From Olavius sp. associated proteobacterium Delta 1 (lineage in GTDB: Bacteria; Desulfobacterota; Desulfobacteria; Desulfobacterales; JAFDCJ01): a stretch of 32,000 nt of DNA. Below, piece after piece: positions 1 through 24,836 of the stretch. The translations under genes and the position numbers were made by a program. The notes under the pieces were generated by a model, which ran no database searches, was not told where the DNA came from, and worked only from the letters and a program-made list of their open reading frames with translations. How positions within the stretch are numbered: the first letter of the stretch is position 1; each line of letters opens with the position of its first letter. Where the stretch lies: the NCBI GenBank assembly GCA_902749685.1, contig CACVKW010001110.1, positions 1-32,000 on the forward strand, given 5' to 3'.

Positions 1-31
1 CAGCATCGAGTATCAAGCATCCAGCATCAGC
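1..31. repeat. 7-nt periodic array (CAGCATC GAGTATC AAGCATC CAGCATC), cut by the window edge
   Basis: Direct reading shows four heptamers sharing the pattern NAGNATC. Confidence 0.5.
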
Positions 32-146
32 CCGGAAAAAGCAACGATCTCAGACATAACGGCCAGGCTAGATGACAAGAATTTATGCAATGTTAGGGTA
101 GAGTCTTAGTAGTGAAATTTTTGCATTTTATGTAAAAACATTTTCG

Positions 147-217
147 CCACAAATACACTAAGACACGAAGAAGAATATTAATCAAAGGTTTCACTTTGTG
201 TCTTGGTGTCTATGTGG
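147..217. other. imperfect inverted repeat downstream of the 250-780 gene
   Basis: Arms are 147-166 (CCACAAATACACTAAGACAC) and 198-217 (GTGTCTTGGTGTCTATGTGG). They are 17/20 complementary with a 31-nt loop. A TGTTTTT run follows on the minus strand, so it is a possible terminator or repeat element. Confidence 0.3.
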
Positions 218-249
218 CAATTCATTATTTTCAGAGCGGATTAATTAGA

Positions 250-780
250 TTATTTTTGCCGGACAAATACTACTTCAAACGCCTGCTTTAATGTCGCCTG
301 GAAGTAAACGCCCGTAAATGCATCCTGATCGGGGTTGTAGTCCAGCGTATACGTCGAGCCCGGGTAGCCCTTATCCTGCAGTTCGATGAACAGCTCCTGT
401 TTACCCTTTTTCCAGGAAGCCTCGGCCCGGGCGACATTTATCGGGCGAGGATTCAAGTAGGCGGCATCCATCCGACCATCAGCGCGAATGCTGCGGATCT
501 CGATGATATAGCCTCCGTCCGGTCGCAGCCAACGACCGATAAGGTTTTCAAAACCCTTGTCTTTATCCAATGCTGCGGTCGATAGGGCTTGCGGTATCTT
601 CGCATCGGACTTAGCAATCTGATTCTGTGTGGTTGATTTTAATTTGGCTACCACCAGTATGATCGCCCCAACGGCGACCACAATTATCAAAGATACCCAG
701 ATGACCGGAAATCGTTTTTTAGCAGGAACTTGAACTGGCTTACGACTAGATTGGCGATTTTTTTTTCTGCGGGAGTTCAT
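250..780 (-). CDS. hypothetical membrane-anchored protein (basic N-terminus, one TM helix, ~120-aa soluble domain)
   Basis: 176-codon ORF with ATG at 778-780. The upstream gene's stop (784-786) is 3 nt away, suggesting translational coupling. TM segment FPVIWVSLIIVVAVGAIILVVA is visible. No family recognised. Confidence 0.6.
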   Translation of the reverse strand: MNSRRKKNRQSSRKPVQVPAKKRFPVIWVSLIIVVAVGAIILVVAKLKSTTQNQIAKSDAKIPQALSTAALDKDKGFENLIGRWLRPDGGYIIEIRSIRADGRMDAAYLNPRPINVARAEASWKKGKQELFIELQDKGYPGSTYTLDYNPDQDAFTGVYFQATLKQAFEVVFVRQK

Positions 781-783
781 CTT

Positions 784-1848
784 TCACTCCGAGGTTTGAG
801 ATATAAAATGTTGAATAACCGGCAACAGGCCTACGACCCCTTCCTGGAGCGGTCGGATGACGGGCAGCCCGAGTCTTTGCGTAAGTTCGTCCCGGTAACG
901 GATTAAGTCCTCCCCGGTTCCTCCCTCTCCGTTCAGGCTAACGGCCAGGGTCTCAGCGCCGTACATTTTTATTAATTTGATCTCGTCTGCGACATCGGGT
1001 AATCGGCAGCCCAGGCGCTCCAACTCTTCATAATGTGTTCTGAAAGGCGCATGTTGCAGAATAACTCCCTTTGCATTGGCCGAGACAATAATTTCCGAAC
1101 CGCAGGGACCGGAGGGATTTCTGAGGCCGGATTGGCCTTCGATAAGAATCAAATCCGGAGAAGACTGACGGTTGCATTCCACGATAGCATGTTCAAGTTC
1201 CCCGCTGACAAAATCATTGAGCGTGGCGTCGAAAATAAATCCGTGCCTGTATCCCTGCAACCAACCGGTTTGCCCGGTGTAGATCATTTCAGCCTGAATT
1301 CCATTTTTGCGGCACGTTTCCTCTATAAAACGGCAGGTTGTTCTTTTGCCGATGGAGCAATCCATCCCGAGGACGGCTATTCGAGGTGTATGGACTTTAT
1401 AGATCTCACCGTTCCAAAAGTGAAGCTGGTCGATGGGTTTGGGCTTGCGAAGATCCATGATTTGAACACCATTTTTGCGGGCCGCCTCCCGCAGTACAAG
1501 GATTTCACTTAATGGGTAGTGCATGGTGCTGATGATGTTAATACAGCTTTGGATAGCTTCGAGCAGAATTTTATGCCAGTCCTCCGGCAGCTTCCCGCCG
1601 CTTAGCGCGACGCCGACGATGCCGAAATCCGGTTTTTGATGCTTCTGTTCCATAAATTCAGCGATCGATGCATACACGGGTATGTTTCTGCGCCGACCGT
1701 CCAGGACTTCGCCTGCATCTCTCCCGGCGCTTACCGGATCAATTACACCAACGATCTTAAAGCGGCTGGTTCCTCGAATAAGACCATGTGCAGTCTTCGC
1801 ATCGTCAGTCTCCAGCCGTCCGTTTGTTAGAATAAGTGCAGTATCCAT
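784..1848 (-). CDS. DUF1611-family protein (DgcN-like putative N-acetyltransferase)
   Basis: Motifs TAHGLIRG and GMDCSIGKRTT (P-loop-like) are typical of DUF1611. The ORF-track TTG start at 1881 lies inside a heptamer repeat, so the start was trimmed to ATG 1846-1848 (MDTALILTNG...). The gene is adjacent to an enolase-superfamily epimerase, as is common for this family. Confidence 0.75.
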   Translation of the reverse strand: MDTALILTNGRLETDDAKTAHGLIRGTSRFKIVGVIDPVSAGRDAGEVLDGRRRNIPVYASIAEFMEQKHQKPDFGIVGVALSGGKLPEDWHKILLEAIQSCINIISTMHYPLSEILVLREAARKNGVQIMDLRKPKPIDQLHFWNGEIYKVHTPRIAVLGMDCSIGKRTTCRFIEETCRKNGIQAEMIYTGQTGWLQGYRHGFIFDATLNDFVSGELEHAIVECNRQSSPDLILIEGQSGLRNPSGPCGSEIIVSANAKGVILQHAPFRTHYEELERLGCRLPDVADEIKLIKMYGAETLAVSLNGEGGTGEDLIRYRDELTQRLGLPVIRPLQEGVVGLLPVIQHFISQTSE

Positions 1849-1857
1849 AGGTAAGCA

Positions 1858-1897
1858 TAGGTTGAGCGGTTCAGGATTCAACGTTCAGGGTTGAAAA
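1858..1897. repeat. 7-nt periodic array (GGTTCAR-type) in the leader of the DUF1611 gene
   Basis: Reads CGGTTCA GGATTCA ACGTTCA GGGTTGA. Positions 1858-1889 are 29/32 identical to 24362-24393. Confidence 0.7.
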
Positions 1898-1978
1898 ACC
1901 CCAACAACAGCTCAAATCAAATAAATTTAAATAACCAAAATTCAAATGGCCGAAACGGGATATTGATTGGTAATCCTT

Positions 1979-3073
1979 TCAATCCGCAATCTGAAATCTG
2001 CAATCCGCAATCCACTTCACCCCGAGTCCCGGTTGGTCGGTTACAGATAACTCACCGTCTTTGAGAACGAAACCGCCTTCCACCAGATCCCTGGCCAGAT
2101 CCAGACTACCGTCCAGATCCAGGTAGCGGGTGGCCGGAGAAGCCAGGGCGGCGTGCAGGGCGGCGGCGATGCCGACCCTGCTCTCATCCATACATCCCCA
2201 CATCAAATCAATGCCGGCCAGATTGGCGAGTTCAGCGATCTGCAACCCCGCAGCAATGCCGCCGCACTTCATCAGCTTGATGTTGAAGATACCAAACGCA
2301 AACGGCGGCTGCAAGCATTCGAGGGCATCCCGGGCATCGAGCAGGCTCTCGTCGGCCACCGTCATTTTCCGCATCGATTCAGGCAGCCGGCGCATGCTGT
2401 CCAGATCACGGGCCGGTAATGGTTGTTCGATAAATTCCAGGTTTAGTGAATCGGTTTGATCAATGAAATATTTATATTCCTCCCGTGAGTACCCCTGGTT
2501 GGCATCCACCCGCAGGATCATGTCCCGGCCCGTGTGCTGGCGGATTTGACTCAGACATTCCACATCCTGCTCAACCGACTGCCCGATTTTGATTTTGAGA
2601 ATTTTAAAACCCCGTCCCTTATACTCGTCTGCTTCTTCGAGCGACTCGGCCACGGATTTTATCCCGATGGTAATAGACGTCGGCAACGACCGGTGGCACC
2701 GTCCCAGCAAATCAACCAGCGGCAAACCCAGATGCCTGGCCCATAGATCATGTAACGCAATATCGATTGCGGCCCGGGCCGCAGGCTGGGTGGGCATGCT
2801 GTTCTCCGCATTTCTCAGAATATTTCTTAAATGTCGGATATCCGCACCCATAACCAAGGACTCGAGACCGCTCTCCAGTGCCTGACGGCAATCCTGCACG
2901 CTTTCGCCGGTGACTTCTGCGTCCGGAGCGGCAACTCCCACACCAATCGAACCATCTTCTGTCTGCAGGCAAACAAAAATATTTTCAACTGAATCGATGC
3001 GCTCGTAGGCGATGGTGTACGGCCGTGTCAACTCGAACGGTTCGGTCCAGTATATTGCTTTGGTGATTTTCAT
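1979..3073 (-). CDS. enolase-superfamily (MR/MLE) dipeptide or N-acyl-amino-acid epimerase/racemase
   Basis: Carries KIKIG (KxK), VDANQGY, IEQPL, ADES and FNIKLMKCGGI catalytic and metal-ligand motifs. The start was trimmed from GTG 3109 to ATG 3071-3073 (MKITKAIYW...). The last 11 codons are encoded by the heptamer array at 1980-2014. Confidence 0.8.
   Translation of the reverse strand: MKITKAIYWTEPFELTRPYTIAYERIDSVENIFVCLQTEDGSIGVGVAAPDAEVTGESVQDCRQALESGLESLVMGADIRHLRNILRNAENSMPTQPAARAAIDIALHDLWARHLGLPLVDLLGRCHRSLPTSITIGIKSVAESLEEADEYKGRGFKILKIKIGQSVEQDVECLSQIRQHTGRDMILRVDANQGYSREEYKYFIDQTDSLNLEFIEQPLPARDLDSMRRLPESMRKMTVADESLLDARDALECLQPPFAFGIFNIKLMKCGGIAAGLQIAELANLAGIDLMWGCMDESRVGIAAALHAALASPATRYLDLDGSLDLARDLVEGGFVLKDGELSVTDQPGLGVKWIADCRFQIAD
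1980..2014. repeat. 7-nt periodic array CAATCCG CAATCTG AAATCTG CAATCCG CAATCCA
   Basis: Direct reading. It overlaps the last 11 codons of the epimerase ORF. Confidence 0.75.
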
Positions 3074-3405
3074 AATCTTTATCTTTTTTGCGATGACCGC
3101 CACCAACACTCAATTTAGGTTATCGTAATCCATATGGCAAAAATTAACTTTTAGTTGATTAATCAAAAAAGATGTAATTTACCTAAAATTTGATATAAAC
3201 GACAGCGAGGTGGATATTAGAAGTTTGTGAGACGGGATGCAAGAGGATTTTTAAATTTCAGGGACGGGTTCTTCTCCATAGGCGCTAAACTATTTATACC
3301 CGGGGGTGATTTTGGGCGGCTTAATGAAAATGTTGGACGTTCGATGCTTGCAGTCCGCCTCTGGAGGATTCGATGTTCAGCCAGTTTGTGTTTAAGGCTC
3401 AGCTT

Positions 3406-4011
3406 TTATAGGGCTTTTAGCGGGCTGTCCTGTTTTACGGCTTTTACCTGGTTTTCACCCCAGCGCTGAAATAGATCGTGTTTGATGCCCAGAAAATCGA
3501 ATACTTTTCCAATCGTTTGATCGATGATGTCATCGAGGGTTTTGGGCTTATGATAAAAGGAGGGTACCGGAGGCAGGATATGGGCGCCCATGTCAGCGGC
3601 CATGGTCATCAGCCGCAAATGTCCCTTGTGAAGCGGCGTTTCTCTAACAACGAGCACCAATTTGCGTCCTTCTTTCAGCGTTACATCCGCTGCTCTGACC
3701 AGTAGATTTTCGTTGTAGGAATTGGCAATACCGGATAGTGTTTTTATGGTACACGGTACCACCACCATGCCGTCAGTCAAAAAAGAACCACTGGCCAACG
3801 AGGCCGCTATATCCTTGTGTTCATAAACGTGGTCGGCCATCGCCTCAACTTCATCAGGCTTGTAATTGGTTTCGATCTTGATGTTTAACCTTCCTGAATC
3901 GGATATGATCAGATGGCTTTCATAATCGGTTTTTTCCAGTAAACTGAGTAGCCGGACGCCGTAAGTTACGCCACTGGCGCCTGAGATTCCTACTACTATT
4001 CGTTTTGGCAT
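3406..4011 (-). CDS. ubiX: flavin prenyltransferase UbiX (prenyl-FMN synthase)
   Basis: Carries GISGASG near the N-terminus and VVPCTIKTLSGIANSYNENLLVRAADVTLKEGRKLVLVVRETPL. Start is ATG 4009-4011 with GAGGA upstream. It lies 28 nt downstream of the UPF0261 stop. Confidence 0.9.
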   Translation of the reverse strand: MPKRIVVGISGASGVTYGVRLLSLLEKTDYESHLIISDSGRLNIKIETNYKPDEVEAMADHVYEHKDIAASLASGSFLTDGMVVVPCTIKTLSGIANSYNENLLVRAADVTLKEGRKLVLVVRETPLHKGHLRLMTMAADMGAHILPPVPSFYHKPKTLDDIIDQTIGKVFDFLGIKHDLFQRWGENQVKAVKQDSPLKAL

Positions 4012-4039
4012 GAATTTCCTCTTTCAAATTTTATTTTTA

Positions 4040-5251
4040 TTAAAATATTTTCAACGCATTTTCAACTACCGCCTGCGCGAATTCCGGATCTTCCATGTTG
4101 GCGTCGACTTCCACTATCTGAAGATCGGTCTTGAGTTTTTTCCGCAGAACTTCAGTAAACAATCGGTCTTCGGCCGGATCATAGGTTGGATTTCCGGGAA
4201 GATCTGCCGAGGACCATCCCTTAAGCGGTATCAAAATTCTTACCGGGCTCCGGGCTCGGTTCAGTTTTTCCGCGAAAGCATTGGCGACCTTATTTAATTC
4301 ATCCGGGGAAATACGCAGCCAGGTGCGAAGGTTATCCAGATCATATTTTCGTCGTTGCCTGTGCTCCGAAGTATATTTGGATTTTGAAGGTGTTATGTGG
4401 TTCACACTACAGGTGGATATGATTTGAGGTATTCCGACTTTCCCGGCAGATTCCAGGCGGTTTGGGCCTGAATCTCTCATAAAACCAAAAAGATGTTCTC
4501 CAACTCCACCAGGGGCTAAATCAATAATTCCCTGAAACATTTCAAGTGAGATCATTTCCTCCATGGCCCGGTCGCAGATTCCGGCTGCATGGAAACCAAT
4601 GACCTGGTATCCGGATTCTTGCAAGGCGTTCTGAACCCCATTTGCACATTTATCGCAGGGTCCAAGCATTGTCATGGCAATGGCCTTTCCTTTGCCCGTA
4701 TTCGGTGGAGTCATTTCCCCGAGAATCATACCGGCAATAGCATGGGCTGCCCTGTCAAAGACATTTTTAAGTAGATCTGAGAGCCCTGATAACTCAATAA
4801 CCGAATGAAAAAGGGTAATATCACCGGTTCCGATATACCGGGTTGAAAGCCCGGGCAGAGCAGCGGCAGAAGAAATCATCAATTTGGGAACACCGAAGGG
4901 GAGCGTCCGCATCACCTCAGTGATCATAAACGTTCCGGTTGCGCCTCCCATGCCGGTAACCCCGTGGATCTTACCCTCCGCCTGCAGCTGTTTGGCAATT
5001 TTCGATGCCCCCGCTATTGTAATATTGGTAATCTGCGTACGATCCTTAGAATTGCGGATTTCATCAAAATTACCACCACCGGCAGCGGCCACACGATCGG
5101 GGGTTATATCGGCAAGGGAAGCTATTGTTCCTCGCATGGAGATATCCATTAGCAGCGGTTGGAGACCACACGCTTTAATTTTATCTTTGAGATACAACGT
5201 CTCCGGTTGCTTGGTGTTCAAAGTGGAGATGACAAGAACGGTTTTTGGCAT
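4040..5251 (-). CDS. UPF0261 family protein (Tm-1-like ATP-binding domain), paralogue 1
   Basis: 403 aa. Carries family motifs STLNTKQPE, LPFGVPKLMISS, FHAAG....AMEEM and EDPEFA. Colinear with the ORFs at 15355-16584 and 19712-20929. Confidence 0.8.
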   Translation of the reverse strand: MPKTVLVISTLNTKQPETLYLKDKIKACGLQPLLMDISMRGTIASLADITPDRVAAAGGGNFDEIRNSKDRTQITNITIAGASKIAKQLQAEGKIHGVTGMGGATGTFMITEVMRTLPFGVPKLMISSAAALPGLSTRYIGTGDITLFHSVIELSGLSDLLKNVFDRAAHAIAGMILGEMTPPNTGKGKAIAMTMLGPCDKCANGVQNALQESGYQVIGFHAAGICDRAMEEMISLEMFQGIIDLAPGGVGEHLFGFMRDSGPNRLESAGKVGIPQIISTCSVNHITPSKSKYTSEHRQRRKYDLDNLRTWLRISPDELNKVANAFAEKLNRARSPVRILIPLKGWSSADLPGNPTYDPAEDRLFTEVLRKKLKTDLQIVEVDANMEDPEFAQAVVENALKIF

Positions 5252-5338
5252 AGATTAACCTGCTCTCTACGAATTAAACATTTATGTGCTACCACATAGA
5301 AATGATTTGAAGCCTTGTTTGTCTGTTAATGTAATAAT

Positions 5339-5385
5339 GAATGGATTATTTTTTAATTAAAAAACATTTAAAATAGAATCCATTC
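5339..5385. other. AT-rich stem-loop between the CoA-ligase stop and the UPF0261-1 start
   Basis: GAATGGATT (5339-5347) and AATCCATTC (5377-5385) are perfect 9-bp arms. The loop contains the 16-bp palindrome TTTTTTAATTAAAAAA. Confidence 0.45.
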
Positions 5386-5392
5386 CTTAATT

Positions 5393-7048
5393 TCAGGCTT
5401 CTTTTGCCACTTTCTCCGCGATCTCTTTTTTCAGAGTTTCCTTATTAACTTTCCCCGAATCGCCGACGGCGGGAAATTCATGTACTACTTCAAGACGTTC
5501 GGGGAGTTTATACATGGCCAGTTTTTTTCCTTTGAGGAACTCAACCATTTCTTCAAAGACGAATTCCTGGCCGGCTTTGGGGATGACATAGGCACATGTC
5601 CGCTCACCCATTTCCCGGTCCGGGTAACCCACCACGGCGACCGAGGCGACTTTCGAATGATCATTTAAAAGTCCTTCGATTTCCGCCGGATAAATATTTT
5701 GCCCGCCGCGGATGATCATGTCCTTGGCCCGCCCCAGGATCCATAGACATTCCTGATCGAATTTAACGATGTCCCCGGTTGTGGTCCATCCTTTTGGATC
5801 GAAGACGGTGGCGGTGAGTTCTTCATCCCGGTAGTAACCGGCCGGTGCGTGGGGTCCTCTGAAATACAGAACACCGGGTTCGCCATCAGCTACCGGTTCG
5901 TCGGTGTCTTTGTCCAGCAGGCGGACCTTGTTGCCCGGCAGCATGCGCCCGACGGTCCGGCGTCGAAGATCCTTGGAATCTTCTACCCGGCAGCCGGAAA
6001 CCGAGCCCATATCCTGGGTTCCCAGATCACTGGTGATATTGGCTCCGAAGGCGGTTTCGGCCTCTTCAGCTATCTGGGGAGAGAGATAGCCGCCGGCGGA
6101 GCGGATAAAACGCAGCGAACTCAAATCGTATTTGGAGGCATCGATTTCGAGCATTCTGACCAGGTGGGTCGGTACCACACCGATGGCGGTGGCCTTTTCC
6201 TTTTCAATCAGGGCCAAAGCGGCTTCCGGATCGAATTCTTCCAGCATAACTGTCTTGGCGCCGGCCAGCGGAGCGGCAAAATAGGTGAGGGTGCCGGCAG
6301 CCCCTCCGGCATGGGGTGCAATCGCCATGGTGGTGTCCTGGTTGGTAAGGCCCCATATGTCTACCCGGCCTTTGGAGGTGCATACGCGCGGGGCTGTGGG
6401 CCATTCCACCAGCTTGGGTATGCCGGTGGTTCCCGATGTCGTTGTCAGCAGGGCCACATCCCCGATCGGGTCTAAGCGTCGCGCTTTGAGGACATCTTCG
6501 TCAATGGGTTTTTGAGCTGCCGCTTGTGCTAATTGGGTTAGCGAATAGGTTCCTTCCGGTGCGCCTTGCGGTACTTCGTCGTCGAATAAAAAAATCTTTT
6601 CCAGATGCGGAAACTGCTTCTGAAGATCCTTGTACATTTCAAGATAATTGAAATTGCGGTATTCATTTAGAATGACAACGGCGGCGGCCTCAGTTCTCTC
6701 CACCATGTAAGTCAACTCTCTTTCCCGCAAATACGGATAAACGGTAAGAGAAATCAGGCCGGCTCTTTCAGCCGCAATTCGTGCCAGAAAGCCATACACA
6801 CTGTTCGGCGATTGAATAATGATTCTGGATGATCGAGGAATATCCATCTGTACCCAGGTGAAGGCAATGGCATCCACCAGATTTTTGGCTTCAGCCCAGG
6901 TAACGCGGTACTTGGAATCAACCAGGGCTTCCTGGTCCCCAAACTCGCGGGCGTTTCTTTGCCAGAAATCATAAAAAAGCTCATGCGTCCAATACCCGTC
7001 CGATAAAAATTCATCCACCATTTCCTGCTTATAGCGAATTGGTTTCAC
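5393..7048 (-). CDS. AMP-forming acyl/aryl-CoA ligase (adenylate-forming superfamily)
   Basis: Carries TSGTTGIPK (6413-6439), a GYW-containing N-terminus resembling aryl-acid-activating members, GDIVKFD and a C-terminal lysine region. Start is GTG 7046-7048, 6 nt downstream of GGGAGG. Confidence 0.85.
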   Translation of the reverse strand: MKPIRYKQEMVDEFLSDGYWTHELFYDFWQRNAREFGDQEALVDSKYRVTWAEAKNLVDAIAFTWVQMDIPRSSRIIIQSPNSVYGFLARIAAERAGLISLTVYPYLRERELTYMVERTEAAAVVILNEYRNFNYLEMYKDLQKQFPHLEKIFLFDDEVPQGAPEGTYSLTQLAQAAAQKPIDEDVLKARRLDPIGDVALLTTTSGTTGIPKLVEWPTAPRVCTSKGRVDIWGLTNQDTTMAIAPHAGGAAGTLTYFAAPLAGAKTVMLEEFDPEAALALIEKEKATAIGVVPTHLVRMLEIDASKYDLSSLRFIRSAGGYLSPQIAEEAETAFGANITSDLGTQDMGSVSGCRVEDSKDLRRRTVGRMLPGNKVRLLDKDTDEPVADGEPGVLYFRGPHAPAGYYRDEELTATVFDPKGWTTTGDIVKFDQECLWILGRAKDMIIRGGQNIYPAEIEGLLNDHSKVASVAVVGYPDREMGERTCAYVIPKAGQEFVFEEMVEFLKGKKLAMYKLPERLEVVHEFPAVGDSGKVNKETLKKEIAEKVAKEA

Positions 7049-7072
7049 GGCATACCTCCCATTATAAGTTCA

Positions 7073-7218
7073 AAGCTGAAAGCCCAAAGTTTGATGTTAT
7101 AAGTTTTTAGGAATCATAGGTTCTATATTGATGTGAATGTTTTGCTCAGAAGTTATAGCGAAAGCTCATTACCCTGCCGGGGCAGGGCTTTGAGCCTTTA
7201 CCTTTGAGCTTTCAGCTT
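7073..7218. repeat. complementary heptamer-word arms (AAGCTGAAAGCCCAAAG / CTTTGAGCTTTCAGCTT) spanning the ubiD-like / ligase intergenic gap
   Basis: Arms 7073-7089 and 7202-7218 are 16/17 complementary. The internal perfect hairpin CCCTGCCGGGGCAGGG lies at 7172-7187. Confidence 0.65.
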
Positions 7219-7220
7219 CC

Positions 7221-8627
7221 CTATAGCCCCAGTTCCGACCAGCGCCCCTTGACTCTTTCAACCATCTCCGGATCCAGTTCAATTGGAATCGGCTTATCTT
7301 TCCAATCGTATGGAATCGTGGCGTCCAGCAGCAGTCGGCCTGTGATTTCTCGGGCATTTATCGGCAAGGAGGGATCCAGCGGTGTGGACCGACCGCGTTT
7401 AATGACCTGGGATCGATTGGGCTGGAAGCGGAAGCTTAAGGCATACATGACGCGGGGAATATCCCAGGGATCAATATCTTCGTCGACGACGATCACAGTT
7501 TTCAGCCCGTAAGCGCCCATTTCTGTTGAAATCGCGGCTGTCAATACCTGGTCGGCGTGGCCCGGATACATCTGCTTCATTGAGATAATGGCCAGAAAGC
7601 GGCCGGAGCCTTCCGGCGGACAGTAGACGGCCTTTAAACCGGGTATCTTCATGGCCAAAAGTTGCTGCCAAAGAGTGGCGCCGTATGAAAGTGCCATGGT
7701 CATGTGGGTATCGGTGACGGCCCGGCCGACGGTGGTTCCCCACAAAATCGGGTTGTTTCTGTGGGTGACGCATTTAACATCGATAAAATTTCGCGGATCT
7801 GTGCCGACGCCGGAATAGTAGCCGGTGTATTCGCCGAAAGGTCCTTCTTCCATAAATTTATCGGCATCCACCTCACCTTCTATGACGATTTCGGCTGTGG
7901 CCGGAATGGGAAGATCCACTGTTTCGCCTTTGACAACTTCCACGGCTTCACCCCGCAACGCGCCGGCGACATCGTATTCGGAGGTAAAGGCTGAGATGCG
8001 GGCCGCTCCAAGGATGAACAACAGGGGATCGCATCCGATGACCGAGGCCACCGGCATGGGTTTGCCCATGGCCTGGTATTTTTTCAGCATGATGTCGGCG
8101 TGTTTGCCCTTGATGAACTGGGTCCCCATCTTATCTTTGCCGAGAAGCTGGCTGCGGTATGTGCCCAGGTTAACCCAGCCGGTTTCAGGATCTTTGGAAA
8201 TGATGAAATGCGCGGTGCCGATAAACCGGCCACCGTCCAGGGGATACCACTGGGGAACGGGAAATTTGAAAAGATCGATGTCGTCGCCTGTCAGGATATT
8301 CTCTTTACAGGGTGCGGCTGAGGATTCCACCGTCTTGGGCGGTATCAGGTTATCACCCAGTTTGGCCCATTCATTGTAAAGGTCTACCAGGGTGGATTCG
8401 AGGGGCAATCCCATGATTAAAGCAAGCCGCTGGGTCGTGGTGCAGACACTGGTGATGACCGGCGTGTCATAATCTTTTACATTTTCAAAAAGCAGCGCCG
8501 GACCGCTGGCCTCTTCATTTAGTTTGGCGATATGTGACAGCTCTAAATTCCAGTCGACTTCGGCGGTGATCCGTTTACACAGTCCGATTTCTTCACCTTG
8601 GGCTACAAAATCTCTCATGTCTTTCAT
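7221..8627 (-). CDS. UbiD-family prenyl-FMN-dependent (de)carboxylase
   Basis: 468 aa. Carries LGTYRSQ and EGPFGEYTGYY (7815-7847), which are UbiD signatures. Start is ATG 8625-8627 with GGAGA upstream. Confidence 0.9.
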   Translation of the reverse strand: MKDMRDFVAQGEEIGLCKRITAEVDWNLELSHIAKLNEEASGPALLFENVKDYDTPVITSVCTTTQRLALIMGLPLESTLVDLYNEWAKLGDNLIPPKTVESSAAPCKENILTGDDIDLFKFPVPQWYPLDGGRFIGTAHFIISKDPETGWVNLGTYRSQLLGKDKMGTQFIKGKHADIMLKKYQAMGKPMPVASVIGCDPLLFILGAARISAFTSEYDVAGALRGEAVEVVKGETVDLPIPATAEIVIEGEVDADKFMEEGPFGEYTGYYSGVGTDPRNFIDVKCVTHRNNPILWGTTVGRAVTDTHMTMALSYGATLWQQLLAMKIPGLKAVYCPPEGSGRFLAIISMKQMYPGHADQVLTAAISTEMGAYGLKTVIVVDEDIDPWDIPRVMYALSFRFQPNRSQVIKRGRSTPLDPSLPINAREITGRLLLDATIPYDWKDKPIPIELDPEMVERVKGRWSELGL

Positions 8628-8716
8628 TTTGATACGTTTCTCCTCTCTAACTTTGGGTTGGCTAATTTTTTCTGTTTCTCGAAAATAAACGCGATGTAAT
8701 GCAGAACAATGGTAAA

Positions 8717-8869
8717 GGGCGTAAGGTATAAGGTGTGAGGTGTAAGGTATAAGGTGTAAGGTTGAAGGTATAGAACGGGCCGAAGCCCCAGGCCGTGCGA
8801 CGGATCCTTGACCCTAAACCCTAAACCCTATACCCTATACCCTAAACCCTATACCTTATACCCTATCCC
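8717..8869. repeat. paired heptamer arrays: C-free arm (RTAAGGT)x7 and G-free arm (CCCTAWA)n
   Basis: The left arm has seven units at 8721-8769. The right arm spans 8806-8869, with C3 tracts at exact 7-nt spacing over 8812-8849. In register the arms are roughly 70% complementary (about 5 of 7 positions per unit). The loop spans 8773-8805. Confidence 0.8.
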
Positions 8870-8899
8870 TTTCTTTACTGATACCTTGAACCCATTTTA

Positions 8900-9970: not shown

Positions 9971-10009
9971 TATTGTCCTCCCGCAAAATCTCCAAAATCT
10001 CTTTTAGGA

Positions 10010-10033
10010 CCCCTTCCCCGGGCGGGGAAGGGG
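10010..10033. other. GC-rich perfect hairpin between the pps-alpha-like stop and the pps-beta-like start
   Basis: CCCCTTCCCCG (10010-10020), GG, CGGGGAAGGGG (10023-10033). Confidence 0.6.
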
Positions 10034-10086
10034 CAGAAGGTTGTCACTATCACGCATGTCTGAAAGGGTACTCGAAGCGAGGCTAT

Positions 10087-11949: not shown

Positions 11950-12166
11950 CCTCCTAATTTTGTGGGATTAATCCTTATTAATAGAGCCTGCATTCGCTCG
12001 AACATAGATTTTGCACGTACCGATCAGAAGTAGGGATGACAGCACCGGAGAACAATAATGTAAATTAAACGGAAATAAGGCCCATCGCATCAGGCACCGA
12101 TTGCATAAATCTGAATTGCAATCAGCTATTTATGAACAAAATTAAAAAAACTGTCAATCCAATTAT

Positions 12167-12194: not shown

Positions 12195-12253
12195 GGATGT
12201 GAATAATGTATAAAAATAGTTTGGGTAAAGGGAGACGGTGTAAGGGAACGGCG

Positions 12254-12565: not shown

Positions 12566-12576
12566 AATTGCATCTC

Positions 12577-13715: not shown

Positions 13716-13747
13716 AGGGTTCCCGGAATATAGAAAATTTCAAGCGT

Positions 13748-13797
13748 CAAATTACAAATACCAAACAATATCCAAATTCCAAGCTCCAATGATCCAA
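13748..13797. repeat. 7-nt periodic A/C-rich array (CAAATTA CAAATAC CAAACAA TATCCAA ATTCCAA GCTCCAA TGATCCA)
   Basis: Direct reading. Confidence 0.6.
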
Positions 13798-13977
13798 ACA
13801 AGTTTTGACTTGCCGCAAGATGCGGTATCAAAAAAAACACCTGACGAATTGAACTTATTAACCGCTGAATAAGTCAAGCCGTCAGGTGGGTATGACCTGG
13901 AGACAATTATTTGATCGATTTCAGGTTTTGACAATACCTGTTAGGGGCTGTTAACCTGAACCGAATAACCTAACCTC

Positions 13978-15354: not shown

Positions 15355-16584
15355 TCATTGCGCGGACTGTAATTGATCAAAAGCCTTCAAAATAGCCAGG
15401 GCAAACTCCGGATCGTTGATATGGCAGGGGAGTAGACTCACCATCATCTGATCATTTAGATGCGCCTGTAATGTTTTGGCGAACAGTTGCGGTGCGTCAG
15501 GGTCGTATAACGGTCCTTCTTTGCTGTCAAAAGCGGAAAATCCGTCCATCGGTATCAGCATCTTTACCGGGCCGACGGCCTCATTGCACCTATTGGCAAT
15601 AGTTCGGGAAAGAATTTCAATTTCTGCACGGGTTGAACGAACCACCGTTATGGCCGCATTGTGCACGTGATAAGGCCGGTCGGGAAACAGGCGCCGGGCG
15701 TTTTCCAGGGGGCCGCTAACCAGAAAATCGATATTACCCGGGATAAGAATGGTCGGCAGGCCCAGTTGCAAAGCAGTGTTGCCCCTGTCCGGACCGGCGT
15801 CATAATCACCGCCGAAAAGATGATCTCCTAATTCGTGCAGTGAAAGGTCCACCAGGATTGATACCCCCTCCGGCTCGATCATCTCTTCCATGGCCTCGCC
15901 GCCGGAGCCCACTGTGTGAAATATGACAACTTCGTTGCCCTTTTCTTCCAGAGTCCGGCGCACCTGCTGGGCGCAGGCTTCAGTCGTGCCCAGGGTGGAA
16001 AGAAAAACCAGTGGTTTTGATATGTGATCTTCAGTGACCGGCGCCGGTTGCAGCATGCCCGCTAATGCCATGGCGCCATTGCGAAGTATTTTTCTGGTGA
16101 GGCGATTCAGACCGGCCAGATCACATACTGCATGCAGCATCAAAATATCCTTGGTTCCCACGAATGCCCTGGTGTCGCGTGAAGCCATGGTGGAAATCAT
16201 GACCTTGGGCACCCCGACGGGGAGAGATCGCATTACTCCGCTGGCCAGAGTCGTACCCATAGAACCGCCTAGGCCGATGACTCCCTGAATTCGGTTTTGG
16301 AGATATAACTTCTGAGCGCAGGCAATTGCTCCATTGGTCATTACTTCGAGGGCTTGACCTTCATGACCGATATTTTGAACTTCTTCCAGCGATATTCCGC
16401 CGGCTTTAGCAACTTCTGTTCGACTGATATTTACCGGGACGGGGCTGTGTCCTTTAATGCCCGCATCCATGGTCTGAACGGATATGCCGGCTTGTTGAAG
16501 GCAGGTTGAAATAAAAAGAGCTTCCTGACCTTTGGTATCCATGGTGGCAATCAGAAGTGCTTCAGCGGACTGGGTCAAAATCAC
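15355..16584 (-). CDS. UPF0261 family protein (Tm-1-like ATP-binding domain), paralogue 2
   Basis: 409 aa. Carries ATMDTKGQE, LPVGVPKVMISTMAS, FHTVGSGGEAMEEM, LHELGDHLFGG, GPLYDP and HINDPEFA. Start is GTG 16582-16584. Confidence 0.8.
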   Translation of the reverse strand: MILTQSAEALLIATMDTKGQEALFISTCLQQAGISVQTMDAGIKGHSPVPVNISRTEVAKAGGISLEEVQNIGHEGQALEVMTNGAIACAQKLYLQNRIQGVIGLGGSMGTTLASGVMRSLPVGVPKVMISTMASRDTRAFVGTKDILMLHAVCDLAGLNRLTRKILRNGAMALAGMLQPAPVTEDHISKPLVFLSTLGTTEACAQQVRRTLEEKGNEVVIFHTVGSGGEAMEEMIEPEGVSILVDLSLHELGDHLFGGDYDAGPDRGNTALQLGLPTILIPGNIDFLVSGPLENARRLFPDRPYHVHNAAITVVRSTRAEIEILSRTIANRCNEAVGPVKMLIPMDGFSAFDSKEGPLYDPDAPQLFAKTLQAHLNDQMMVSLLPCHINDPEFALAILKAFDQLQSAQ

Positions 16585-17834: not shown

Positions 17835-17900
17835 ATCTTTATTTTATCAGAATGCCTAAATTTTATAATCAATTTCAATGCTATTTTGGAAGTGATATAA

Positions 17901-17935
17901 GACGAAAGGTCAAAGGCGAAAGGTAATAAGGATAA
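17901..17935. repeat. 7-nt periodic array GACGAAA GGTCAAA GGCGAAA GGTAATA AGGATAA
   Basis: Direct reading. It lies upstream of the flavodoxin/ferredoxin gene. Confidence 0.6.
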
Positions 17936-18847: not shown

Positions 18848-18857
18848 GGCAGAGATT

Positions 18858-19711: not shown

Positions 19712-20929
19712 TTAAACCCCAGATAACCTGGTTCGAACCATACTATCCATCAAATCGGCCGCGACCAGACCAAAAGCCTGGTCGTTTATATGATAATTCA
19801 CTTCGCGAATCTCGATCTGGGGATTGAGAATAGCTTTTAACCTCTCGGTAAAAACTGTGTTCATTTTCGGATCGTATAAGGGTCCATCCTCCCGGTCGGC
19901 TTCGGACCATCCGCTTGTTGGTATCAAAAATTTTATATTTGCCGGATTCCGATTTAATTTTTCCGCAAGCTGATTCGCCAGGATAGTTGATTCATCGGCG
20001 TTGAGACGTATAGCTGATCGAAAGTCATAGTAAAAAATTTTCCGGTCCTGGTATTGGGGAGGGACGTTTTGACGGGTGAATTCTAGCACCGCACAGTCCA
20101 GACCGCCAGGTACCACCAGGCGCGGAATTGATCGTTGCGGGACGGGTTCATATCTCTGCGGCCCAATCGCGCCGCAATAACCATTCATCAGGTGGTCTGC
20201 CAGTTCGTGGGTTGCGAGATCCAGGATTCCGTCAAAATATCCTTCGGCTGCAAGCTCTTCCATGGCCATACCGCCGGTTCCATTGGCATGAAAGGCAATC
20301 ACCTCGTATCCCAGAGCTTCCAGCGCCCGGCGGGTGTATTCGGCCCCGCTAGTGATAAATCCAAAAAAGGGCAGGGCAATGCGTTTTTTTTGTTTATCGG
20401 GCTGCCATTGACTTTGAACCATGCCACAAATGGCGCCTGCGGATTTGTCGAGGATATTGCCGGTTATACTGTTGACGCCCAGCAGATCTGCGACACTGTG
20501 CATCATCGTAATATCCTTTGTTGAGACAATATCTGCCATATTGCGTGAGGCCACAGTAGATACCATCATCTTGGGCACTCCCAGGGGCAGCTGGCGCATA
20601 ATCGTTGTACAGATATAGGTACCGGTTCCGCCCCCGGCCGATATGATTCCAGTGATCTTTCCTTCCTGATGGAGGAGATTGATTAATATTCTGGCTTCAT
20701 CAAGCATGGCATTTATTGCTGTATCCCGGTCCTCAAAAAGGCTTTTACCATCAGCGCTGACAGAGTCGAAAAGATCCAGGTCCACCTTGATCGGAGAAGG
20801 TGCCCCGGTTCCCACATTAATCGTCAATACAGATAATCCCCTTTGCTCAATACGTTGCTTTAGAAAAAGATGTTCCTCGGCTTTTGAGTCAAAAGTACCC
20901 AAAACGGCAATACAGCAGTTTTTTTTCAT
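19712..20929 (-). CDS. UPF0261 family protein (Tm-1-like ATP-binding domain), paralogue 3
   Basis: Carries LGTFDSKAEE, LPLGVPKMMVSTVAS, FHANGTGGMAMEEL, THELADHLMNG, GPLYDP and HINDQAF. The preferred start is ATG 20927-20929 (GAGG upstream). The alternative is ATG 20986. Confidence 0.8.
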   Translation of the reverse strand: MKKNCCIAVLGTFDSKAEEHLFLKQRIEQRGLSVLTINVGTGAPSPIKVDLDLFDSVSADGKSLFEDRDTAINAMLDEARILINLLHQEGKITGIISAGGGTGTYICTTIMRQLPLGVPKMMVSTVASRNMADIVSTKDITMMHSVADLLGVNSITGNILDKSAGAICGMVQSQWQPDKQKKRIALPFFGFITSGAEYTRRALEALGYEVIAFHANGTGGMAMEELAAEGYFDGILDLATHELADHLMNGYCGAIGPQRYEPVPQRSIPRLVVPGGLDCAVLEFTRQNVPPQYQDRKIFYYDFRSAIRLNADESTILANQLAEKLNRNPANIKFLIPTSGWSEADREDGPLYDPKMNTVFTERLKAILNPQIEIREVNYHINDQAFGLVAADLMDSMVRTRLSGV

Positions 20930-21018
20930 TGGTGCCTCGAAATTCCGACTTTCGACTTCATAAATCTGACCTCTAAATTTTGGCATCCGTCGTCCGTCTA
21001 CGCTTTGCGTATTTCCCT

Positions 21019-22642: not shown

Positions 22643-24277
22643 TTACTTGGCTGAAAGATTGGTCGGTTCCCGGCCGGGTGCGACAATGCCGCGGCGCTCG
22701 AGCAGCGATCCGTCCTGCCGGTAAAGATCGATCAGCGCCTTGAGGTAGCTGGCAAGGGCCCGCACCTCAGCGATCCGGCTGACCAACAGATCCCGCTGGG
22801 CTTGCGCCACCACAAAGCTGGTTGATTTTCCGACCCGCAGTTTTTCGGTTTCGGTCCGGAGCTTTTGCTCGTCGAACATGCGGGTGACCGAGGAGGCGGC
22901 AATCTGCTGTTTGGCGCGATTGACCTCGATATAGGCGGTGCGCACGTCGACTTCCACGAGCTGCGAGAGATTTTCAAGGGCTTTTTGGGCCTGGTCTCGA
23001 CTCAGCAGCGCCCGCTGGTGTCGAGCCCTGGCATCCCGATTAAAAACGGGATAGTGGAAGTTCACCCCCGCCAGGGCGTCATAACTGTCTTTGTCGATAT
23101 TGCGAACGGACTCGCCAAATGAATTGGCATAGCCGCTTTTGCCAAGCGTGATGAAAAGATCCATTAAGGGCAGCAATCCGTTTTGGGTTCTGACAAGCTC
23201 CAGATCGCCGCGCAGGATCTCCAGCCGGGCTTCGTTTAGGATCGGACGCATGCGCATCGACACATCCACGTGCAACTCAACGACTTCCAGCTTGATTTCG
23301 GGTAAGGTCGGTTGATGGATCAAATCAATTTCGCGCTGCCAGAGACCGGGGCCTAACGGGTTGAGCAGGCGCAGCAATTGCAGTCGCATTGATTCCTTTT
23401 TGGTGCGGGCTTCGATGAGGGCCTGCTCCTGTAACGCAACCTCGGCCTGGACGGCCGCCAATTCGGCCTTGGCCAATCGGCCGACGGCGATCAGCTCTCT
23501 GGTTTCGTTGAGTTGCTGCCGGGCGACTTTCAGGGACTCCTCAACAATTTCGATCTGACGCCGCGCCAGCGCATAGTCCCAATAGGTCCGTTCCACCTCC
23601 GCCACCAGAAACTCGGTAAAACCCCGCAACTCATATTCCGACATGCGCGTATCCAGGCGTGCCTGCTGCAGTCGGGCCAGATTCACCTCCGTTCCGTATC
23701 CTCGCAGCAGCGCCTGAGTCACCGTCATGCCCAGGCGGTTCGTATAAAAGATGTCTTCGTAAAGAGAGGCGTCATTCAATTGCGTGCCGGCTTCCAGGGC
23801 TACCGTCGTGCCGGTCGGGAAATATTGCTCTAAAGAAATGATGCCTTCGGCGCCATCGGTGGTAAAATCCTCAGTTCCAGATCCGGACCTTTCGAGCCGT
23901 TCTCCTTTGACCCTGCCGGCGGAGACGTCCGCGTATATTGCCGGATCAAAAACAGCTCTTTCCTGATCCTCGAAGGTTTGCTGGATCGAGGGATCCAATC
24001 TTTGCACCACAAGCGAGCGGTTGTTTTCAAGGCAAAGCAAAATGGCTTCGGTGATGGTGACTTTTAAAGGCCCCGGCGGCACCTTGGGCGCCGCAATCTC
24101 TTCGGGTTGCCCGGAAGACTCCAGGCGCATGTGCACCGCTGTATCGGCAGGCACATTCGGCCCTCCCGCCGTGCGATCAATCCGTTCCTCGACCAGCGTA
24201 CAGGACGCCGCCACCAGCAATAACCCACCCACGGCAAAAAACTGCAGCAGACGATGATAACATCTTGTAGACATCAT
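22643..24277 (-). CDS. TolC/NodT-family outer-membrane efflux lipoprotein
   Basis: 544 aa. The signal peptide ends in the lipobox-like VAASC. Two coiled-coil and beta-barrel repeats are typical of outer-membrane factors. Start is ATGATG at 24272-24277 with GAGGA upstream. Confidence 0.85.
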   Translation of the reverse strand: MMSTRCYHRLLQFFAVGGLLLVAASCTLVEERIDRTAGGPNVPADTAVHMRLESSGQPEEIAAPKVPPGPLKVTITEAILLCLENNRSLVVQRLDPSIQQTFEDQERAVFDPAIYADVSAGRVKGERLERSGSGTEDFTTDGAEGIISLEQYFPTGTTVALEAGTQLNDASLYEDIFYTNRLGMTVTQALLRGYGTEVNLARLQQARLDTRMSEYELRGFTEFLVAEVERTYWDYALARRQIEIVEESLKVARQQLNETRELIAVGRLAKAELAAVQAEVALQEQALIEARTKKESMRLQLLRLLNPLGPGLWQREIDLIHQPTLPEIKLEVVELHVDVSMRMRPILNEARLEILRGDLELVRTQNGLLPLMDLFITLGKSGYANSFGESVRNIDKDSYDALAGVNFHYPVFNRDARARHQRALLSRDQAQKALENLSQLVEVDVRTAYIEVNRAKQQIAASSVTRMFDEQKLRTETEKLRVGKSTSFVVAQAQRDLLVSRIAEVRALASYLKALIDLYRQDGSLLERRGIVAPGREPTNLSAK

Positions 24278-24361
24278 ATCAGATCCTCACAAATCCCGAT
24301 CTAGCCCGATGGCGGTCGGTTTGGTCCTATTTGCAGGTGTTTTAAAACGCGTTTTTATACC

Positions 24362-24427
24362 TAGGCTGAGCGGTTCAGGGTTCAACGTTCCGGCGGTTGT
24401 AACCTTTGAACCTTGAACCTGGAACCG
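24362..24427. repeat. heptamer-word hairpin (GGTTCAR arm / TGAACCT arm) upstream of the tolC-like gene
   Basis: Arms at 24371-24393 and 24401-24427 are about 80% complementary. The left arm is a near copy of 1858-1889. Confidence 0.7.
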
Positions 24428-24677
24428 ATCAGTTTAGTTTATACTATATAGTTTTTTTGCTGCGTGGTGGCAACCGAAAACTGCTTTGAACATATGCCGC
24501 GCTTTTCTGAACGCTTGAGGGGAAAAACGGCACCAGCAGATCTCCATGTACATTCTTCTATCAGCATCGCTAGAATAGGTTTGCGTCCATTCATCTGCCG
24601 GTGATTTTCTGATTTGAGCGAACTGGTTTTTTTAATACCTTTTAGTTAAACCCTAATTGAGCGAAGCCTAATTAGCC

Positions 24678-24809
24678 GGTATTGGGTATTGGCTATCAGG
24701 TATTGGTTTTGTGGTCTGGAGTAATTATTTTCTATGACCCTTTCGGTTGATATATTAAAAATCAAACTCATTCCTTAAAACCAATACCCAGTGTCTGATA
24801 CCGAATACC
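24678..24809. repeat. 132-bp element bounded by 33-nt imperfect inverted heptamer arms (GGTATTG-type), MITE-like shape
   Basis: Arms 24678-24710 and 24777-24809 are 25/33 complementary overall. The inner 12 bp are perfect (GGTATTGGTTTT/AAAACCAATACC). The core is 66 nt. Confidence 0.55.
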
Positions 24810-24836
24810 CCTCAATTGAGATTCACTCAATTGAGG
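24810..24836. other. perfect 11-bp hairpin CCTCAATTGAG-ATTCA-CTCAATTGAGG
   Basis: Direct reading. It abuts the 24678-24809 element. Confidence 0.6.

Follow-up and report, generated by a model that had tools for sequence, protein, structure and literature searches.

How tandem arrays with a strict 7-nt period come to lie between the genes of a bacterium is the question raised by a 32,000-nt stretch of DNA (hereafter the window) from Olavius sp. associated proteobacterium Delta 1 (assembly GCA_902749685.1, contig CACVKW010001110.1, positions 1 to 32,000). Our analysis indicates that most of these arrays are probably inverted arms, terminal or sub-terminal in position, that belong to small non-coding elements; these measure about 75-350 nt, resemble miniature inverted-repeat transposable elements (MITEs) and reside in intergenic gaps both in this genome and in those of many related sediment bacteria. 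Support for such a mobile-element reading is good in the families built on the unit GGTTCAR, and the reading is plausible for most other families. The arrays are not independent local growths with arbitrary words, a view that is contradicted by dispersed copies and duplications.

Strict 7-nt arrays between genes had been predicted from the letters of the window alone, and they are real. In a strict lag scan (21-nt windows with at least 18 matches), lags of 7, 14 and 21 covered 200, 210 and 121 nt of the window, respectively, and no other lag covered any base; the 30 dinucleotide shuffles used as control gave 0 bases at these three lags. Over all 5.5 kb of window gaps, the fraction of matches at lag 7 was 0.316 vs 0.264 in 300 dinucleotide shuffles, with z values of 8.4, 7.2 and 6.6 at lags 7, 14 and 21, so the comparison with shuffled controls that the original prediction had proposed came out in its favour within the window's intergenic DNA. 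A lower threshold yielded 14 lag-7 segments (1-33, 1976-2022, 7061-7090, 7185-7224, 8714-8774, 8799-8874, 12243-12304, 12324-12396, 12450-12489, 12532-12572, 13740-13790, 17899-17932, 24396-24433 and 24672-24708), 13 of which lie outside the main open reading frames (ORFs) and one of which overlaps the last codons of a gene. Tandem Repeats Finder (TRF) reported period-7 arrays at most of the predicted places (1-28, 1980-2013, 7187-7218, 8722-8772, 8811-8870, 12257-12287, 12321-12386, 12460-12484, 12539-12561, 24401-24426 and 24678-24706), together with higher-order periods of 14 and 21 nt, the latter in both arrays of the gap at 8.7-8.9 kb. When set in rows of seven, every predicted stretch displays its unit, with a lag-7 identity of 0.45-0.95; the weak matches, scored singly, are those at 1858-1897 (0.45), 24777-24809 (0.54) and 17901-17935 (0.57), and 24371-24427 is likewise among the weakest. 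The statement that coding DNA is free of the pattern holds in so far as window coding DNA has 3-base periodicity only, but the array at 1980-2014 forms the last 11 codons and the stop codon of an ORF. Similarly, the arrays occupy 8 distinct gaps, not ten or more, and the word does not change with every array: RTAAGGT is shared by the arrays at 8721 and 12331, and GGTTCAR by those at 1858 and 24371. All covered arrays were unchanged in ten assemblies (ENA, JGI and Logan runs) that are 99.99-100% identical to window positions 1-13229; the arrays are therefore neither an artefact of one assembly, a possibility raised at the outset, nor hypervariable within the strain.

Transposition would account for the distribution of the arrays, their shared flanks and their target-site duplications, and slippage for changes in unit number. 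Within the window, a repeat search showed that positions 1858-1889 and 24362-24393 are 91% identical over 32 nt, non-periodic flanks included, and that the junction GAAYATCGAATCCTCCRGAGGCGGAC occurs at 3353-3378 (inverted), at 12474-12499 and partly at 25446-25464. A 19-mer from the GGTTCAR arrays, GGTTCAGGRTTCAACGTTC, is present in at least 120 metagenome contigs and, among the matches listed, falls in families with long conserved non-repeat parts. Related loci (designated by L and a number) contain, outside long ORFs, 51 arrays of period 7, 24 of period 8, 19 of period 9 and no more than 11 of each other period. Identical canonical words recur 16 times among 51 period-7 arrays in the window and 80 related loci, compared with 1.4 recurrences expected and a maximum of 8 in 2000 random trials. 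An independent set of metagenome contigs totalling 604 kb provided 104 further period-7 arrays, none overlapping the search pattern, which use 48 words, many of them recurring and common to the loci linked to UbiD; periods 8 and 9 gave 54 and 47 arrays in this set, and no other period gave more than 24. Apart from a mild enrichment of GGT/ACC (z = 3.2) and a depletion of AAA and GCC, the composition of the words is nearly random.

Two families carry most of the evidence for insertion. Copies of family A are 226-236 nt long and without an ORF, with inverted arms of about 40 nt; the left end reads GTAACC GTTCACA GGTTCAG GGTTCAA CGTTCAG GGTTAAGG and is followed by a conserved interior and, at the other end, by its inverse complement. 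Perfect 8-bp duplications flank the copies in L108 (CAATCACT), L151 (CATTTAAA) and L199 (AACATTAA), and 7 of 8 positions agree in L132. The tips are GTAACCG, GTAAGCG or GTAGCCG. Insertion sequences (ISs) of the IS66 family are likewise characterized by inverted repeats starting with GTAAGCG and by 8-bp direct repeats (PMC11946415). Because of its GTAA(C/G)CG tips and 8-bp duplications, family A looks like an IS66-derived MITE, although no transposase gene was seen adjoining any family-A copy. Family B begins with CCWAGGTTGAGC GGTTCAG GGTTCAA CGTTCNG GGTTGAAAAA and ends with GTTGTAACC TTTGAAC CTTGAAC CCTGAAC CTGGAACCGATCAGTTTAGG; its inverted arms are also about 40 nt long and it has no conserved ORF. 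Its 19 complete copies measure 188-355 nt (most of them 197-212 nt, three about 300 nt, one 355 nt) apart from the window copy of 79 nt. Perfect AT-rich 5-bp duplications border six copies (TATAA, TCTTA, ATAAA, TAATT, TATAA and, in the window, TTATA), and in four further copies the duplication holds at four of five positions. The window copy lies at 24360-24438 on the plus strand between TTATA at 24355-24359 and TTATA at 24439-24443, so that the whole feature spans 24355-24443; both of its ends match the ends of 200-nt family-B copies, e.g. those in L121 and L153, and the alignment shows it to be an internal deletion that kept both ends.

These elements thus combine a small size (79-355 nt) and the absence of coding capacity with terminal inverted repeats, target-site duplications and many dispersed copies between genes, as MITEs do; MITEs are under about 600 bp in size. 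They differ from MITEs in that the arms consist of 3-9 tandem units of 7 (or 8-9) nt, not of a single inverted repeat of 15-40 nt, and in that many families with different units follow one plan with no parent IS found. They are best filed as MITEs with arms of tandem 7-9-nt units, overlapping the class of heptanucleotide long repeats.

Copies of family B differ by exact 7-nt gaps in the right arm, which points to whole-unit slippage, and GAAYATC is present in about 1.5 units at 3353 vs 3.6 at 12460. A process of 7-nt slippage and expansion was one of the two explanations offered in the original prediction; the exact 7-nt indels between copies agree with it, but the arrays are not independent local expansions, many of them being arms of dispersed elements. 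In its full form, this alternative regards the arrays as simple-sequence repeats (SSRs) that arise de novo and in place, with slippage favouring 7-nt units and with the pairs produced by slippage in hairpins and quasi-palindrome (template-switch) correction. Besides the indels and the unequal unit numbers at copies of one junction, it can draw on the 14- and 21-nt higher-order periods, on a word composition that is near random but for GGT/ACC, on three window arrays without detected copies elsewhere, and on two papers in which heptanucleotide repeats are reported as the top class of long SSRs in most prokaryotic genomes (PMC4679880, PMC4692102). It cannot, however, yield identical non-repeat flanks at unlinked loci and in at least 120 contigs, nor can it yield target-site duplications; a tenfold excess of identical words between genomes is not what it would lead one to expect, and the array length polymorphism that comparison had been proposed to reveal was absent from the ten assemblies of the strain. 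We consider it unlikely that the arrays originated in this way, and slippage fits best as a process that acts secondarily on the elements.

In the mobile-element model, each family has its own unit (GGTTCAR, GGTATTG, CGAATAT, CCAAATW and others), and an arm consists of 3-9 tandem units, each with a conserved core of 4-5 nt and 2-3 variable positions; most families use 7-nt units and sister families 8- or 9-nt units. Insertion would duplicate the target, 5 bp of AT-rich DNA in family B and 8 bp in family A, with a transposase presumably supplied in trans and IS66-like in the case of family A. The tandem units may serve as multiple protein-binding sites; the conserved core GTTCA, repeated every 7 nt, at least resembles tandem sites of this kind. 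After insertion the arms could change through whole-unit slippage, homogenisation of units and nested insertions, and old copies would decay into solo arrays. An element inside an operon would have its arms co-transcribed and could form a long hairpin, and a few such hairpins are perhaps retained by the host. An element of about 100 nt with the ends CCYGCCCTGGTR ... CAGGTCTGGGCCAGGG is nested in heptamer arms of families A and B, at 3443-3540 and 3706-3813 in L095, on the minus strand in L103 and at 729-833 and 1852-1955 in L109, and lengthens family-B elements from 205 to 305 nt; the arrays themselves appear to be its target.

Other features of the window show the same plan in various states of preservation. 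The stretch 1856-2014 (plus strand) aligns end to end with family B as a diverged full-length family-B-like element. Its left arm, 1858-1897, reads GGTTCAG GATTCAA CGTTCAG GGTTGAA, with the left tip 8 nt from the start codon of a DUF1611-domain gene, and its right arm, 1976-2014, has drifted to CAATCYG units and supplies the end of the ORF mentioned above, which is of the MR_MLE type. The left 65 nt of this element have matches of 84-92% in 51 unrelated contigs. A 190-nt palindromic element at 24649-24838 (no strand assigned), assigned to family F, has 62-nt arms with (GGTATTG)n that are 71% identical over 62 nt (inverted repeat I1); its segment 24779-24810 is 94% identical to the lysR-adjacent array of L022, and the word AATACCC recurs in L009 and L034. 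Family D is represented between convergent genes by a half element at 13734-13800 (plus strand) with the units CAAATTA CAAATAC CAAACAA TATCCAA ATTCCAA GCTCCAA; it has matches of 81-87% in L137, L191, L197 and L120, and in L197 and L120 the complete hairpin is present. A remnant at 3330-3390 on the minus strand carries the junction GAACATCGAAT-CCTCCAGAGGCGGAC, in which about 1.5 heptamer units adjoin a GC palindrome and which appears again at 12474-12499; it was identified through the inverted repeats I2 (92% over 26 nt) and I6 (95% over 19 nt). The GC-rich palindrome type TCCGCCTCYGGAGGMGGA is found in four non-coding places (3354-3372, 12484-12499, 25446-25464 and 25586-25600) and is joined directly to GAAYATC heptamers in two of them; it could be an operator or another small repeat.

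Three arrays or elements lie on the plus strand upstream of lysR. A solo array of (CACGGCR)n at 12243-12304, found by TRF and the lag scan and assigned to no family, is situated between the LysR box with its promoter and the lysR start codon. The array (RTAAGGT/CTATGGT)n at 12324-12396 is a second copy of 8714-8774 (direct-repeat family D1, 74-81%); in the window repeat search, 8711-8768 and 12335-12392 are 81% identical, and an inverted match joins 8811-8865 to 12332-12386 (76% over 55 nt, 3.5 kb apart). At 12450-12572, the left end of family E (AACCGCAGAATATCGAATAACGAATATCGAAT) is followed by a GC palindrome and an (AACSAAT)n array that adjoins the lysR start codon; positions 12453-12524 of this feature have matches in L187 (83% over 65 nt), where an inverted partner is also present, and in L101 (89%), and the feature includes direct repeat D13. 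Arrays of related words adjoin lysR in many relatives. Solo arrays comprise the one at 1-33, four upstream of lysR (12243-12572), 13740-13790 and 17899-17932. The last of these is a weak purine-rich array (AAGRYSA; lag-7 identity 0.57) on the plus strand, 45 nt upstream of the start of a Fer4-domain gene and without a family. That at 1-33 (CAGCATC/GAGTATC/AAGCATC, about 4.5 units by the lag scan, no strand assigned) stands at the window edge and also belongs to no family, and its canonical word, AGCATCC, is found again in L047 and one array of the metagenome contigs. Two contigs of the same strain, L081 and L082, run only 28-42 nt past it and contain no partner arm there. Many of the matches to the 19-mer in L091-L210 fall within about 150 nt of a contig end (e.g. 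L102, L113, L122, L123, L125, L130, L135, L160 and L166); these contig ends, like the ends of L081 and L082 beyond array 1-33, fit multi-copy repeats that break short-read assemblies.

At the start codons of lysR (12532-12579) and of the DUF1611-domain gene (1849-1897), arrays adjoin directly and no Shine-Dalgarno sequence is recognisable. TAACTGA repeats of Beggiatoaceae are located at start codons without ribosome-binding sites (PMC4679880). Inverted arrays of the same word bracket 3-3.8 kb containing both phenylphosphate-synthase-like genes and the promoter in three species, at 8811-8865/12332-12386 in the window, 2506-2600/5495-5561 in L007 and 6095-6129/9866-9900 in L037. Which word is used depends on the species (RTAAGGT in the window, CAGATGR in L007 and L037), and the arrangement could reflect chance insertion of a locally abundant family, gene conversion or a mobilised segment.

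Because their arms are terminal inverted repeats, the elements have the potential to form hairpins, and five pairs of complementary arrays in the window do fold into long ones, with energies between -37 and -83 kcal/mol, as the original prediction had proposed: 1858-1897/1976-2014 (-44 kcal/mol, minus strand), 7061-7090/7185-7224 (-52 kcal/mol on either strand), 8714-8774/8799-8874 (-83.5 kcal/mol on the sense, i.e. minus, strand and -69.4 kcal/mol on the plus strand), 24371-24427 (-39 kcal/mol) and 24649-24710/24777-24838 (-46 kcal/mol). The hairpin at 7061-7224 (minus strand) fills the whole intercistronic gap between the genes for UbiD and an AMP-forming ligase; in mRNA sense, its 5' arm is (GAAAGCT)n at 7185-7224 and its 3' arm (AGCTTTC)n at 7061-7090, the latter adjoining a GGGAGG ribosome-binding site, with an inner GC hairpin at 7175-7190. 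That at 8697-8885 (minus strand), in the gap between the PPDK_N-domain gene and the UbiD gene, is made of (RTAAGGT)n at 8714-8774 as one arm and (ACCCTAW)n at 8799-8874 as the other, and shows a higher-order period of 21 nt (TRF scores of 83-96 at period 21); relatives have other words in this gap. On its minus (mRNA-sense) strand, 8806-8869 presents nine GGG runs, mostly 4 nt apart, with AGG for GGG in two units (GGGATAGGGTATAAGGTATAGGGTTTAGGG...), a textbook G-quadruplex motif that could compete with the hairpin; the plus strand contains the plant telomere unit CCCTAAA, probably by coincidence. About 19 of 25 inverted pairs from the window and relatives combine a purine-rich 5' arm with a pyrimidine-rich 3' arm, on both strands by symmetry, an observation that includes many related pairs and is not a clean statistic.

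These hairpins could be RNA structures under selection, needed for processing by RNase, for differential stability or for bringing stop and start codons together, with the repeats as an easy route to long stems. Roles in mRNA processing, stability or operon polarity were suggested in the original prediction and may apply. Two of them, 7061-7224 and 8697-8885, lie inside a conserved operon; the former closes the gap from the UbiD stop codon to the ribosome-binding site of the ligase gene, and the latter is 14 kcal/mol stronger on the sense strand. The UbiD-ligase gap is homologous in the window and six other species, with 64% column identity, and in these seven species the long-range helix is kept with two compensatory changes, which could stem from retention by the host or, against the RNA explanation, from homogenisation of the DNA arms. 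When the two gaps flanking UbiD were folded in sense and antisense in about 55 relatives (a test of strand asymmetry through G·U pairs), the signs were mixed, the greater stability falling to either strand with about equal frequency. With respect to genes, the same families are found in both orientations, arrays are also present upstream of the promoter in the divergent region and between convergent genes (13734-13800), and the PPDK_N/UbiD gap is just 13-14 nt long in L014, L034 and L038. Rfam 15 gave no match in the window at gathering thresholds and none to the elements in L108, L109, L121 and L197 at E values up to 0.1; scans for tRNA genes in the window and the element-bearing loci were likewise negative. 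We judge selection for RNA structure to be an improbable origin of the arrays.

The gaps up- and downstream of UbiD harbour paired short-period arrays in many species, with different words and periods. Downstream of UbiD, the pair is GAAAGCT/AGCTTTC in the window and GATAGCT/AGCTATG in L003, L005, L006 and L037, both of period 7; GTTGAGCCC/AACGGGCTC of period 8-9 in L008, L016, L019 and L030; GTGACTAAA/TTTAGGCAC of period 9 in L014, L022 and L034; and ACGCAAAG of period 8 in L018. Hairpins of periods 8, 8-9 and 9 are also found in unrelated contexts (copies of family G in L103, L182, L097, L028, L095, L196, L197 and L108), a dispersal on account of which turnover of word and period in place was rejected. 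The simpler reading is that the same permissive gaps were colonised repeatedly by different families of one design. A difference in presence and absence between species is seen upstream of lysR, where the 350-nt array-rich stretch is missing in L001, L003, L004 and L007 (gap of 269-285 nt vs 628 nt here) while the LysR box and operon promoter are conserved. Positions 12100-12215 and the homologous gaps of about 40 related loci share the conserved core ATAAG-N-CTTAT-N-ATAGCATAAA...TTGACAG-N17-CATAAA, which looks like the LysR box and the promoter of the operon; this position would place the arrays at 12243-12572 outside the operon mRNA.

Several observations weigh against the mobile-element reading. 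Among the elements of the window, target-site duplications were shown only for 24360-24438, and the hairpins 7061-7224 and 8697-8885 show none. Self-BLAST and inspection of ORFs in 1.9 Mb of related loci revealed no autonomous parent element sharing these ends (the ORFs inspected in L095, L101, L108, L120 and L103 were housekeeping genes or nested small elements only), and what lies between each pair of inverted arrays spaced 0.6-4 kb apart is ordinary genes, e.g. aroA, cysK or those of an ABC transporter. BLAST searches with joined element flanks detected no clean empty site among related loci; the one, unclean, case is L100, in which 24 unrelated nt replace the element. The arrays 1-33, 12243-12304 and 17899-17932 have no copies among the related loci compared, and neither array length nor insertion varies within the strain among the ten assemblies, so that there is no sign of recent element activity. 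The arms of families A and B are near-identical, yet their tips and the lengths of their duplications (8 and 5 bp, respectively) differ, which is hard to fit to a single transposase. Finally, the model leaves the reason for the 7-nt unit unexplained.

An alternative is that the arrays are sites bound by host DNA- or RNA-binding proteins, for instance a global regulator or nucleoid-associated protein, or else a protein that forms rings or filaments and recognises a single short motif every 7-9 nt. Each unit has a conserved core of 4-5 nt, such as GTTCA every 7 nt in families A and B, and heptad-reading proteins offer parallels: ribbon-helix-helix proteins, of which omega of pSM19035 is one, occupy contiguous 7-bp heptads, and HutP recognises UAG repeated every 7 nt. 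The same architecture has been described in Geobacter metallireducens, for which regulators of the IHF/HU type were proposed (PMC2700814). Against this explanation, there are dozens of words (48 in 604 kb) with no common motif beyond GGT/ACC, so one host factor cannot read all of them, and the target-site duplications indicate that the sites arrived by insertion. The search for a single motif common to all words returned only the mild GGT/ACC enrichment, which makes a single sequence-specific host factor unlikely. As an account of the arrays in its own right, binding by a host protein is therefore very improbable, but it does not conflict with the MITE model should the transposase be the protein that binds.

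The Geobacter metallireducens sites are the closest precedent and come from the same broad group (deltaproteobacteria, now Desulfobacterota). They are multi-copy paired sites of 4 x 8, 3 x 9 or 5 x 7 nt units on opposite strands at variable distance, and IS elements are inserted at fixed positions adjoining them (PMC2700814). Like the arrays studied here, they consist of 3-5 tandem units of 7-9 nt in opposite-strand pairs, with tens of intergenic copies, and the IS elements beside them are matched here by the element of about 100 nt nested in the arms; in contrast, no target-site duplications or mobility were reported for them. The Geobacter consensus sequences MTYCTGA, GTTGCTYN, TCTCCGTS and GGACCGG do not occur as tandem dimers in the window or related loci.

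Heptanucleotide repeats are reported to be the most abundant long SSRs in most prokaryotic genomes, and polymerase slippage has been proposed for them (Mrazek et al. 2007, as cited in PMC4679880 and PMC4692102). The arrays agree with long SSRs of the Mrazek type, which have units of 5-11 nt, in having tandem iterations beyond shuffle controls, a mostly non-coding location and whole-unit length change between family-B copies. TAACTGA repeats occur in Beggiatoaceae, cyanobacteria and Bacteroidetes, and some GGGAATC repeats of Xanthomonas form convergent pairs and lie between the same genes in related species with differing length and sequence. These repeats and the short tandemly repeated repetitive (STRR) sequences share with the present arrays the tandem 7-nt units, the intergenic location and the frequent proximity to start codons, but there one or few words are found per genome and the explanations given are slippage or regulation, whereas the present arrays use many words per genome and come with conserved non-repeat parts and target-site duplications. 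The parallel to the STRR sequences of heterocystous cyanobacteria drawn in the original prediction is apt as to kind, both being tandem intergenic heptanucleotides; the present host is no such cyanobacterium and no STRR word stands in tandem in the window. The STRR words are said to have been given by Mazel et al. in 1990 as CCCCAGT, TTGGTCA and CAACAGT. Neither STRR1-3 nor TAACTGA, GGGAATC or GGGGAYT has a tandem dimer in the window, and the STRR words have just one in 1.8 Mb of related loci; membership in STRR is ruled out by the absence of these words and by the non-cyanobacterial host.

Repetitive extragenic palindromic (REP) elements and bacterial interspersed mosaic elements (BIMEs) of enterobacteria and pseudomonads are likewise multi-copy extragenic palindromes; they occupy intercistronic gaps as well as the 3' ends of operons and are able to stabilise mRNA. 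REPs are single GC-rich imperfect palindromes of 20-40 nt that are mobilised by REP-associated tyrosine transposases (RAYTs) without target-site duplication. The present elements differ in that their arms are tandem arrays of 30-60 nt with moderate GC content and in that duplications are present, so they do not qualify as REPs. A BLAST search of family A and B consensus copies against 72,556 plasmids gave no match, the only match to element sequence in full-text literature was an unrelated fish microsatellite primer, and nothing describing such arrays as duplication-flanked mobile elements was found in the literature searched.

A broader reading would have the elements belong to an unrecognised superfamily of mobile elements, with ends that form a lattice of contiguous 7-9-bp sites read by a filament of the transposase or a partner, and would place the same design behind the Geobacter sites, the Xanthomonas GGGAATC pairs, TAACTGA and STRR. 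The 21-nt super-period would agree with a filament in which three 7-bp sites take up two turns of the helix. This extension is doubtful; were it true, the long-noted excess of bacterial heptanucleotide repeats would consist of mobile-element arms and not of slippage products or regulatory sites.

If the MITE reading is right, it explains, in a form open to testing, how heptanucleotide arrays originate in one large group of bacteria at least, namely by spreading as element arms and then drifting through slippage, and it recasts the guesses of regulator sites in Geobacter and of pure polymerase slippage. The elements would then break short-read assemblies and contribute stop codons and leaders, as at the 3' end of the MR_MLE-type gene and the start codons of the lysR and DUF1611 genes, and they would place long hairpins in operons of anaerobic aromatic degradation, which is relevant to annotation and expression studies of uncultured sediment bacteria. 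A repeat-lattice design common to families with different units would also point to a new mode of protein-DNA recognition.

The UbiD protein of the window is 88-97% identical to proteins from metagenome-assembled genomes of Desulfobacterales, Desulfomonilaceae and 'Ca. Desulfacyla', which rules out a cyanobacterial origin; the host is a deltaproteobacterium of the Desulfobacterales type. The amino-acid identity of UbiD across Desulfobacterota families is unusually high. In the nearest other species, coding DNA reaches an identity of only about 80% to the window. Genes of the window include those for UbiD, a UbiX-type flavoprotein, the AMP-forming ligase, three UPF0261 paralogues, a LysR regulator and others, as well as a split phenylphosphate-synthase-like pair with PEP-utilizer and PPDK_N domains. 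The cluster at 3406-13536 (UbiX-type flavoprotein, UPF0261, AMP-forming ligase, UbiD, PPDK_N and PEP-utilizer genes and the divergent LysR regulator) looks like an operon for anaerobic carboxylation and activation of aromatic compounds, and further UPF0261 paralogues are encoded at 15355-16584 and 19712-20986. Contigs L081 (1-137) and L082 (1-123) are identical to the window up to position 13229 inside lysR, past which they continue into unrelated sequence (CACTCTTGTCCAAAAACGAGTTTAGAATGAGTCATATAATGAGTTG...) and end about 125-140 nt later; the break looks like the end of an IS that part of the population carries, or like a repeat at which the assembly was joined.

Positions 26000-32000 have a G+C content of 0.54-0.61, compared with about 0.45-0.50 before, and their gaps are without short-period arrays; this may be a compositionally different segment. 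Just before it, the gap at 25407-25890, parts of which match L009 and L006, contains a 21-nt unit (CTTTAATATGTAAGACGCACA, 1.9 copies) at 25476-25515 and a perfect 9-nt unit (TAGAGATTA, 2.1 copies) at 25672-25690.

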